From: an uncultured Desulfobacterales bacterium
GTDB taxonomy: Bacteria; Desulfobacterota; Desulfobacteria; Desulfobacterales; JAHEIW01
Reading direction: 5' to 3'
Length of the DNA: 29,823 nucleotides
Assembly: GCA_964545505.1 (NCBI GenBank)
Contig: CAZJHF010000004.1
Span: 1 to 29,823, forward strand
Shown: in pieces, positions 14,247 through 15,494 of the stretch
Layout: every line of letters begins with the position of its first letter
How positions within the stretch are numbered: the stretch's first letter is position 1
Position numbers and translations under genes: made by a program
The notes under the pieces: generated by a model
The model's input: the letters and a program-made list of their open reading frames with translations, nothing else
The model's database searches: none
Told to the model about the DNA's origin: nothing

Positions 14247-15494
14247 TTATTTGAAAGACGGAATGATAGTTAAGGCACTCTTGACTATATGATCAACGAT
14301 CGCCTGGAGCCAGGCAGTCGCCAAATCGCCTTCGGATTTCGATAACTGCTGGATGACCGCGATGTAATCCAGGCCGCTTTTTTTGATGCCCTTGTGAACG
14401 GCCTCCAGAAAAGCATCCCGGTTGCTTACATCTGTGCTGATGTTCTGATAGGAGCCAAATAAATCCGCTAGCTGCGTCCAATTGGCGATGAGTTCCTGAC
14501 GTCGTTTTGTGTTGAGAGATGTTGATGCAGCCCGGCCATTCGGCGGCTGGGACGAATCATCATCATTTTTAAAGCAGAAACCCTCAAGGCGATTAATGCG
14601 TTCTGATATCGCCCAATTGAGTTTTTCTTTGAGCCCGGCCAGCACCAACTCCGAGAAATTCTCTGAAATAAACTGGCTGCGAACGTGGCAATACCACTGA
14701 TATAAAGCGATCAGATTGGCAATGTAAACCAGATTGTTGACAACTGTGCGGCGATCATTTCCGATTTTGCCGGACTGATATGACACATTGCCTTCTTTGG
14801 CTGATCCGCCGAGTATGAGGCGCCCGGGTCGGTGTTCATCTATGCGTAAGATCGTTCCGGCAGCCACCGTGGTTCCGTAAGTCAGCCGGCAGGGGCCCAC
14901 CAGCCCTCCCTGCCCGCCTAAGAATATGGGGGGCTGATTGATCAGGACCCCCTGGGGCACATCGCCGATCAAAGAGGCCGTCGCTTTATCCTGATTGGGG
15001 GTAAAGTTAAAATGGATATAAGAACTGCCGACTTCACTGTGATTCTTGCGGTTGGTACCACCGGCCATCAGGCAGTCACAAAAATTGATCAAACTACCAA
15101 GGGTAACAAATGGAAAAAGAATCGTGTGCTTGGTGCCGACGGTGTGGGCGATACTGGCCTGTTCTTCGAAAATACTGGCTTCACGCACGTGTGCGCCCGG
15201 CCCGGCCTTGGATTTTGCCAGAAAAACGGCCTTTTCAAAAAAGCCGCCCTTCAACTCAACGCCGGCACCCATCTGGCAATCTTTAACCGTGGCCGGCCCT
15301 TCGAACCCGATTTTCACGTTCCGGGAAATAACGGTGGAGTCACCGAAAATTTTAGACCCGGCGTAAAGCACGACGCCGTCTGCACAAATATGGTCTACGT
15401 TGACTTCTTCGCCGATTTGAATGCTATGCGGGCAGTCAATCCGAACCCCTTTCTCGATCAGCTGGTGTACTTTTGATTTTTTGGAAGGCGTCAT
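14247..15494 (-). CDS. GlmU-like left-handed beta-helix (hexapeptide) protein lacking the uridyltransferase domain
   Basis: The N-terminus (QLIEKGVRIDCPHSIQI) corresponds to the GlmU linker/LbH start. GPGAHVRE, VGTKHT, GSLINFCD, HFNFTPNQDKAT and LVGPCRLTYGTTVAAGT parallel the GlmU C-terminal domain. No GxGxRx(6)K nucleotidyltransferase motif is present. Confidence 0.75.
   Translation of the reverse strand: MTPSKKSKVHQLIEKGVRIDCPHSIQIGEEVNVDHICADGVVLYAGSKIFGDSTVISRNVKIGFEGPATVKDCQMGAGVELKGGFFEKAVFLAKSKAGPGAHVREASIFEEQASIAHTVGTKHTILFPFVTLGSLINFCDCLMAGGTNRKNHSEVGSSYIHFNFTPNQDKATASLIGDVPQGVLINQPPIFLGGQGGLVGPCRLTYGTTVAAGTILRIDEHRPGRLILGGSAKEGNVSYQSGKIGNDRRTVVNNLVYIANLIALYQWYCHVRSQFISENFSELVLAGLKEKLNWAISERINRLEGFCFKNDDDSSQPPNGRAASTSLNTKRRQELIANWTQLADLFGSYQNISTDVSNRDAFLEAVHKGIKKSGLDYIAVIQQLSKSEGDLATAWLQAIVDHIVKSALTIIPSFK

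Follow-up and report, generated by a model that had tools for sequence, protein, structure and literature searches.

UDP-N-acetylglucosamine (UDP-GlcNAc) forms the gateway to peptidoglycan and lipid A, and GlmU, an antibiotic target, is, to our knowledge, commonly regarded as a universal and essential bacterial enzyme. The window analyzed here, a stretch of 29,823 nucleotides from an uncultured Desulfobacterales bacterium, raises the question of which protein transfers the acetyl group where GlmU is incomplete. It carries the gene of a 415-residue protein, P0001, that resembles the C-terminal acetyltransferase half of GlmU and that has no histidine at the position of the catalytic base. P0001 is most likely a diverged stand-alone substitute for the acetyl-transfer half of GlmU, in sulfate-reducer-type bacteria whose GlmU lacks that half. 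We assign a probability of roughly 0.7 to the proposal that P0001 would act as a stand-alone glucosamine-1-phosphate (GlcN-1-P) N-acetyltransferase whose base is relocated or is a carboxylate (Asp140, Glu154 or His161).

Both activities of GlmU can function when carried by separate polypeptides: of the engineered fragments, GlmU-Tr331 and a C-terminal one are each active (Pompeo et al. 2001, as cited in PMC4358021). Forms of GlmU reduced to the N-terminal or to the C-terminal half have been described, and species that possess only the N-terminal domain are said to imply "an unidentified acetyltransferase" (2026 preprint, 10.64898/2026.06.23.733835). The chance that the P0001 family is this enzyme, with Asp140, Glu154 or His161 as its non-canonical base and a helical domain completing the acetyl-CoA site, appears about even. 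That candidacy draws its evidence from Desulfobacterales and Syntrophales; relatives also occur in other phyla and in planctomycete-type multi-domain fusions.

Fold and relationship to GlmU

P0001 contains a left-handed beta-helix (LbH) domain homologous to the GlmU acetyltransferase domain and of the same type (Escherichia coli b3730; PDB codes 2oi6, 4aaw and 3st8; TIGR01173). A Pfam search with P0001 returned no domain, NTP_transferase included, and the GlmU models of NCBIfam match residues 6–219 weakly, over model positions 238–427, with 46.5 bits (cut-off 366.85); identity to GlmU is about 24%. The curated cut-off of the bifunctional GlmU equivalog TIGR01173 is not reached, and the nucleotidyltransferase domain of that enzyme is also missing. 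An alignment of 34 family members (A1) was compared by hhalign with a GlmU alignment headed by the E. coli protein (A2), giving a probability of 99.6% and an E-value of 1.4e-24, with P0001 residues 6–231 corresponding to E. coli GlmU residues 241–441. The start of P0001 is the GlmU linker helix, its residues 6–20 aligning with residues 241–255 of the E. coli enzyme.

The AlphaFold2 model of P0001, computed from A1, has a predicted local distance difference test value of 90.6 and a predicted template modeling score of 0.91. It consists of a short helix (residues 8–15), an LbH domain that extends to about residue 230, and a set of helices between residues 247 and 410. A Foldseek search of the PDB with this model returned GlmU structures as all of the top 35 matches, and the structural alignment has the same span, aligned length and identity as that of hhalign. 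Because both alignments agree, the 25 extra loop residues of P0001 relative to GlmU are taken as excursions from the common prism and not as a register shift. These data directly support homology and a common fold with the GlmU acetyltransferase domain. A reading made from the sequence alone, hereafter the sequence-only reading, had placed the start of the protein at the GlmU linker, had found no nucleotidyltransferase domain and had described a helical C-terminal extension of about 170 residues, and is borne out in all three respects. A complex prediction with two copies of P0001 and coenzyme A (CoA) scored 0.30, where the mark is 0.42.

GlmU ends in a short C-terminal arm, whereas P0001 ends in a helical domain of 165 residues that belongs to no recognized family. 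The two invariant arginine residues of this domain, Arg272 and Arg299, suggest a role at the CoA phosphates. Neither the whole of P0001 nor residues 243–415 gave a Pfam match to DUF4954 or DUF6819 (PF16314/PF20683) at E ≤ 10. By language-model features, residues 243–415 (window positions 14250–14768, minus strand) have a similarity of 0.85 to the DUF6819/DUF4954 proteins of Bacteroidota and Spirochaetota, which serves as a lead only.

Substrate-binding residues and candidate bases

The coils of P0001 spanning residues 98–201 align, profile to profile, with residues 327–412 of GlmU, which form the acetyltransferase site. They contain the invariant residues Arg104, Glu110, Glu111, Lys122, Ser134, Asn137, Cys139, Asp140, His152, Glu154, Ser157, His161, Asn163, Lys170, Ser174, Gly193 and Gly194, and 27 of the 36 invariant columns of A1 fall within residues 104–207. 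Well-anchored parts of the alignment pair E. coli Arg333, Glu349, Lys351, Asn377, Ala380, Asn386 and Ser405 with Arg104, Gly120, Lys122, Glu154, Ser157, Asn163 and Gly194, respectively; Lys392 is paired with Lys170 within a one-residue gap ambiguity. The set that binds the sugar phosphate in GlmU (Arg104, Lys122, Asn163 and Lys170 in P0001) is invariant in 34/34 family members, in agreement with the earlier claim that phosphosugar-binding residues are retained. The CoA-side coil is likewise kept, the motif FLGG...VGP of P0001 matching FVGS...VAP of GlmU in the hhalign alignment.

Six extra residues lie between Lys122 and Glu154 of P0001, and three registers are possible for their placement. 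In the hhalign register, His363 and Tyr366 of GlmU correspond to Asp140 and Met143 (column score −3.4), while phmmer places Phe138 at His363. The ungapped register, which is that of the sequence-only reading, puts Ser134 at His363, Asn137 at Tyr366 and Asp140 at Asp369 (column score −6.2). Profile column scores are near zero in all registers, slightly better for hhalign than for the ungapped register, in which the inward positions stay hydrophobic and the insertion falls in the variable loop 145–150. Neither the periodicity assigned to the model by DSSP nor the column scores favour one register decisively. The residue numbers of the sequence-only reading are all correct, and its assignments for Arg333, Glu349, Lys351, Asn386 and Lys392 stand, the last with the ambiguity given above; its pairing of His363 with Ser134 and of Tyr366 with Asn137 is only one of the three registers. 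An alternative hhalign match with 44% probability, which shifts the alignment by one coil and places His117 at His363, was not adopted as the main register, since the ranges and identity of the structural alignment are those of the primary one and since His117 is not invariant.

At the level of sequence, none of the three registers has a histidine at position 363 or an acid at position 349, so the canonical His363/Glu349 pair is not conserved in P0001, as had been proposed. The equivalents of this pair, Glu348 and His362, are key catalytic residues of the Staphylococcus aureus and Streptococcus pneumoniae enzymes (PMC11947611). Depending on the register, P0001 differs from GlmU in having Asp, Ser or Phe at His363, in addition to Gly at Glu349, Glu at Asn377 and Gly at Ser405. 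The contacts that GlmU makes to the thioester carbonyl through the Ser405 side chain and the Ala380 backbone map to Gly194 and Ser157, both invariant, and the backbone contacts could be kept in P0001.

When distant multi-domain forms are brought into a wider alignment (A3), the polar residues that are invariant are Arg104, Glu111, Lys122, Ser134, Asn137, Cys139, Asp140, Glu154, Ser157, His161, Asn163, Lys170 and Ser174. Because they are invariant across this wider family, Asp140 (at His363 in the profile alignment), Glu154 (at Asn377) and His161 are plausible candidates for the base. His161 aligns with Thr384, two residues ahead of the Asn163–Asn386 pair, and is the sole histidine that is invariant in A3; His152 is invariant in the core family and is replaced by Phe in the planctomycete-type subgroup. 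The earlier suggestion that another base, such as His117 or His161, might be used is thus a live option for His161 only, His117 being a poor candidate that is replaced by Gln, Thr or Phe in 3 of the 34 members.

Among LbH N-acyltransferases, enzymes whose base is a carboxylate or that have no base have already been described, namely DapD and QdtC/WlbB, and the phrase "new acyltransferase chemistry" of the sequence-only reading overstates the case. QdtC (PDB codes 3fs8 and 3fsb), and also WlbB, are LbH sugar N-acetyltransferases that, like P0001, possess a C-terminal helical part; their mechanism, attributed to the work of Thoden and Holden, reportedly dispenses with a histidine base. Unlike P0001, QdtC acts on deoxythymidine-diphosphate-linked amino sugars and has a much smaller helical part; its identity to P0001 is only 13–14%, and the matches of GlmU to P0001 are clearly better. 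Should P0001 prove active, it would show that the His363/Glu349 pair is dispensable in a GlmU-type pocket.

Forms of glmU in this genome and in its relatives

The genome from which the window derives is a metagenome-assembled genome (MAG; 82% complete, 372 contigs), in which no match reaches the TIGR01173 cut-off for a full-length GlmU. It encodes instead a GlmU uridylyltransferase half of 247 residues (model positions 2–239, 284 bits) directly after atpC, the ancestral atp-glmU position that glmU also occupies in E. coli. The sequence-only reading had proposed a search for a separate full-length glmU, and had held that normal GlcN-1-P acetyltransferase activity in a genome with a split glmU would speak against the loss of function it envisaged; no such full-length gene was found, and the split glmU, which is half of that combination, is present.

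The distribution survey covered 200 genomes from this phylum with a completeness of 90% or more; the counts are given without p-values, as related genomes are not independent. A P0001 homologue is present in 33 of them, and full-length GlmU is missing in 29 of these 33, which have a GlmU truncated near model position 240 or 330, or else no match at E ≤ 1e-30. Among the 167 genomes without the family, approximately 106 possess full-length GlmU. The contrast is also seen between close relatives: in one genus (g14) two genomes (G048 and G144) combine a family member with a truncated GlmU, and two others (G007 and G083) have full-length GlmU and no family member, and the same contrast occurs within family f8. 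Five further family-bearing genomes are without full-length GlmU, with the N-half alone in four; among these four are MAGs that carry the names Desulfosudis oleivorans and Desulfonema limicola. A second phylum (41 genomes) leans weakly the same way, with full-length GlmU in 2/10 genomes that have a homologue and in 13/31 that do not. The split glmU and a distribution complementary to that of full-length GlmU are direct observations. The P0001 family, found in at least 584 species genomes, is a concrete candidate for the missing acetyltransferase in a large group of anaerobes.

As in split GlmU (the Pompeo fragments and stand-alone C-halves), the proposed role of P0001 places the two activities on separate polypeptides. 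Canonical stand-alone C-halves occur in family f15 of the phylum (G008, G084, G049, G175 and G115; for example loci L030 and L031) as a separate open reading frame (ORF) of about 250–280 residues that matches model positions 204–445 with about 290 bits. These have an ordinary GlmU sequence with His363 intact and are a true gene fission. P0001, by contrast, is not explained by simple fission, because it belongs to a distinct, much more diverged family with an extra domain of its own.

Gene neighbourhood, fusions and competing readings

A database clustered at 90% identity contains at least 8000 homologues of P0001, to many of which NCBI gives the name "protein GlmU"; at 50% identity the family forms 671 clusters. 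On the same strand and immediately downstream of the family member, glmM is found in 26 of the 33 phylum genomes and at 56 of 75 species loci of the genome collection (about 75–80% overall); at four Syntrophales loci its place is taken by a GlmS-like ORF of about 1300 residues. Fusions extend this association: P0166 (750 residues) joins GlmU model positions 2–340 to the P0001 family, P0272 (914 residues) carries a complete GlmM behind the family domain, P0273 (840 residues) has a galactokinase-like GHMP kinase ahead of it, and P0274–P0280 (about 1160–1240 residues), one of them from Candidatus Uabimicrobium, continue into a divergent PGM/PMM-like domain. A hexosamine phosphate is made or used by every fusion partner. 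Both the glmM synteny and the domain fusions are observed directly, and the pathway context of glmM, glmS and the glmU N-half is that of the GlmU C-domain.

From this arrangement we infer a pathway in which GlmM, from the next gene, would make GlcN-1-P, and P0001, presumably as an LbH trimer, would move the acetyl group from acetyl-CoA to its 2-amino group by means of a non-canonical base. The 247-residue GlmU N-half, encoded on another contig, would then uridylylate the resulting N-acetylglucosamine 1-phosphate. The helical domain of P0001, with its invariant Arg272 and Arg299, would close the CoA site in place of the GlmU C-terminal arm.

Several observations weigh against this assignment. 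The canonical catalytic pair is missing in every register and Ser405 falls on Gly194, so the chemistry must differ in detail from that of GlmU. Four of the 33 carriers in the phylum (G130, G161, G169 and G190; contamination is 6–7% in G161 and G169) and 2 of the 10 in the second phylum also have full-length GlmU, and replacement of the GlmU C-domain is therefore not strict. Family members are absent from several Desulfobacterota lineages whose GlmU is N-only or truncated, a search with the family profile in five such lineages giving no match, and the family is therefore not a universal solution. The glmM linkage is gone in more distant members, and the genome of P0001 itself is only 82% complete.

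It is unlikely, though conceivable, that P0001 is an active LbH acyltransferase that accepts another substrate (galactosamine 1-phosphate, UDP-glucosamine or glucosamine 6-phosphate) or another acyl-CoA and serves a lineage-specific glycan. The catalytic residues that differ from GlmU and the additional invariant pocket residues (Glu111, Ser134, Asn137, Cys139, Asp140, Glu154 and His161) would suit such an enzyme, and so would the full-length GlmU kept in some genomes, the galactokinase-like fusion partner and the gene of a nucleoside diphosphate (NDP)-sugar dehydrogenase that precedes the P0001 gene in the window. However, this last linkage is confined to the five closest relatives (5/73 loci with enough flank), and the dehydrogenase is for that reason not counted in the P0001 system. 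The conserved neighbours and fusion partners, GlmM, GlmS-like proteins and truncated GlmU, belong to the core UDP-GlcNAc route, and most carriers have no other detectable GlmU C-domain, yet need UDP-GlcNAc for peptidoglycan and lipid A.

The sequence-only reading favoured a pseudo-enzyme, a sensor or a mere channelling partner, and a catalytically dead look-alike of the GlmU C-domain that binds GlcN-1-P or acetyl-CoA and regulates or scaffolds GlmM/GlmS is the form in which this idea was weighed. The missing His/Glu pair, the Gly at Ser405 and the large extra helical domain are compatible with it, and the linkage and fusion to GlmM would suit a partner protein as well as an enzyme. It is nevertheless improbable, because genomes with a split glmU would be left without an acetyltransferase for an essential step, and because the family takes the place of the GlmU C-domain in the relatives. 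Consecutive enzymes account better than a regulator for the fusions to truncated GlmU and to an anomeric sugar kinase, and the natural fusions as a whole, like the packing of invariant residues into the active-site coils, fit a pseudo-enzyme poorly; polar residues among them (Asp140, Glu154, His161, Ser157 and Asn163) are predicted to line the homologous reaction centre. The existence of LbH N-acetyltransferases without a histidine base, noted above, also counts against it.

An assembly artefact, with a full-length glmU in the missing 18% of the MAG and the P0001 gene as a redundant paralogue, is very improbable: the fragmented assembly and the few relatives that carry both genes would allow it, but the 247-residue N-half is an intact ORF at the ancestral atpC-glmU position, and relatives with 96–100% completeness, closed genomes among them, show the same truncations.

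The coordinates of P0001, its domains and the associated genes are listed in Table 1.

Table 1. Position of P0001, its predicted domains and associated genes (window coordinates unless a contig is named).
Feature	Position	Strand	Basis
P0001, stand-alone GlmU-C-like LbH protein with helical C-terminal domain, 415 aa	14247..15494	minus	ORF list, translation
LbH domain, aa 17–232, with linker helix aa 8–15 ahead	14799..15446	minus	
Predicted active-site coils, aa 98–201, bearing most invariant residues	14892..15203	minus	Alignments A1 and A3; matched to GlmU 327–412
All-helical C-terminal domain, aa 247–410; invariant R272, R299 and L396	14265..14756	minus	
glmM (phosphoglucosamine mutase), 111 nt downstream of the P0001 gene	12777..14135	minus	TIGR01455, 561 bits (cut-off 447.55)
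NDP-sugar dehydrogenase, 563 aa, 56 nt upstream of the P0001 gene	15551..17242	minus	TIGR03026, 187 bits; three UDPG_MGDP_dh Pfam domains
247-aa GlmU N-half ORF, no LbH part behind	contig C219, L001:864–1607 (outside the window)	plus	

No terminator-like site was found in either intergenic gap flanking the P0001 gene, and the NDP-sugar dehydrogenase is probably co-transcribed with it in this genome. A trio of dehydrogenase, GlmU-like protein and glmM as a new pathway was rejected on the count of upstream loci given above. The dehydrogenase is about 150 residues longer than the 413-position family model, which matches it over residues 57–510.

Other lineages with an incomplete GlmU present different arrangements. 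Monofunctional GlmU was found in 30 of 45 Bacteroidetes genera (Renzi et al. 2015), and the genome of Bacteroides thetaiotaomicron, used as a control, contains DUF4954 and lacks a canonical GlmU; an analogous role as missing acetyltransferase may fall to DUF4954. Five Desulfobacterota genomes (G013, G012, G015, G065 and G026; loci L035–L038) have an N-only or truncated GlmU with neither a P0001 family member nor DUF4954. Four of the five carry glmM in the usual cdaA-cdaR(YbbR)-glmM operon, and none was found in G012 at E ≤ 1e-60.

Literature searches retrieved no paper characterizing any member of the P0001 family, and the present analysis corrects database naming in which a protein without a diphosphorylase domain is called "UDP-GlcNAc diphosphorylase" or "protein GlmU". 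Automatic cluster names, including those of JGI, likewise read [quoted passage not shown] or "pyrophosphorylase", although the family has no nucleotidyltransferase domain. Unusual multi-domain relatives and neighbours (P0273, P0274–P0280 and the giant Syntrophales GlmS-like ORFs) are found at loci L107, L108, L113 and L114. The full-length fold is shared (TM 0.91) by atlas clusters from Actinomycetota and Myxococcota.
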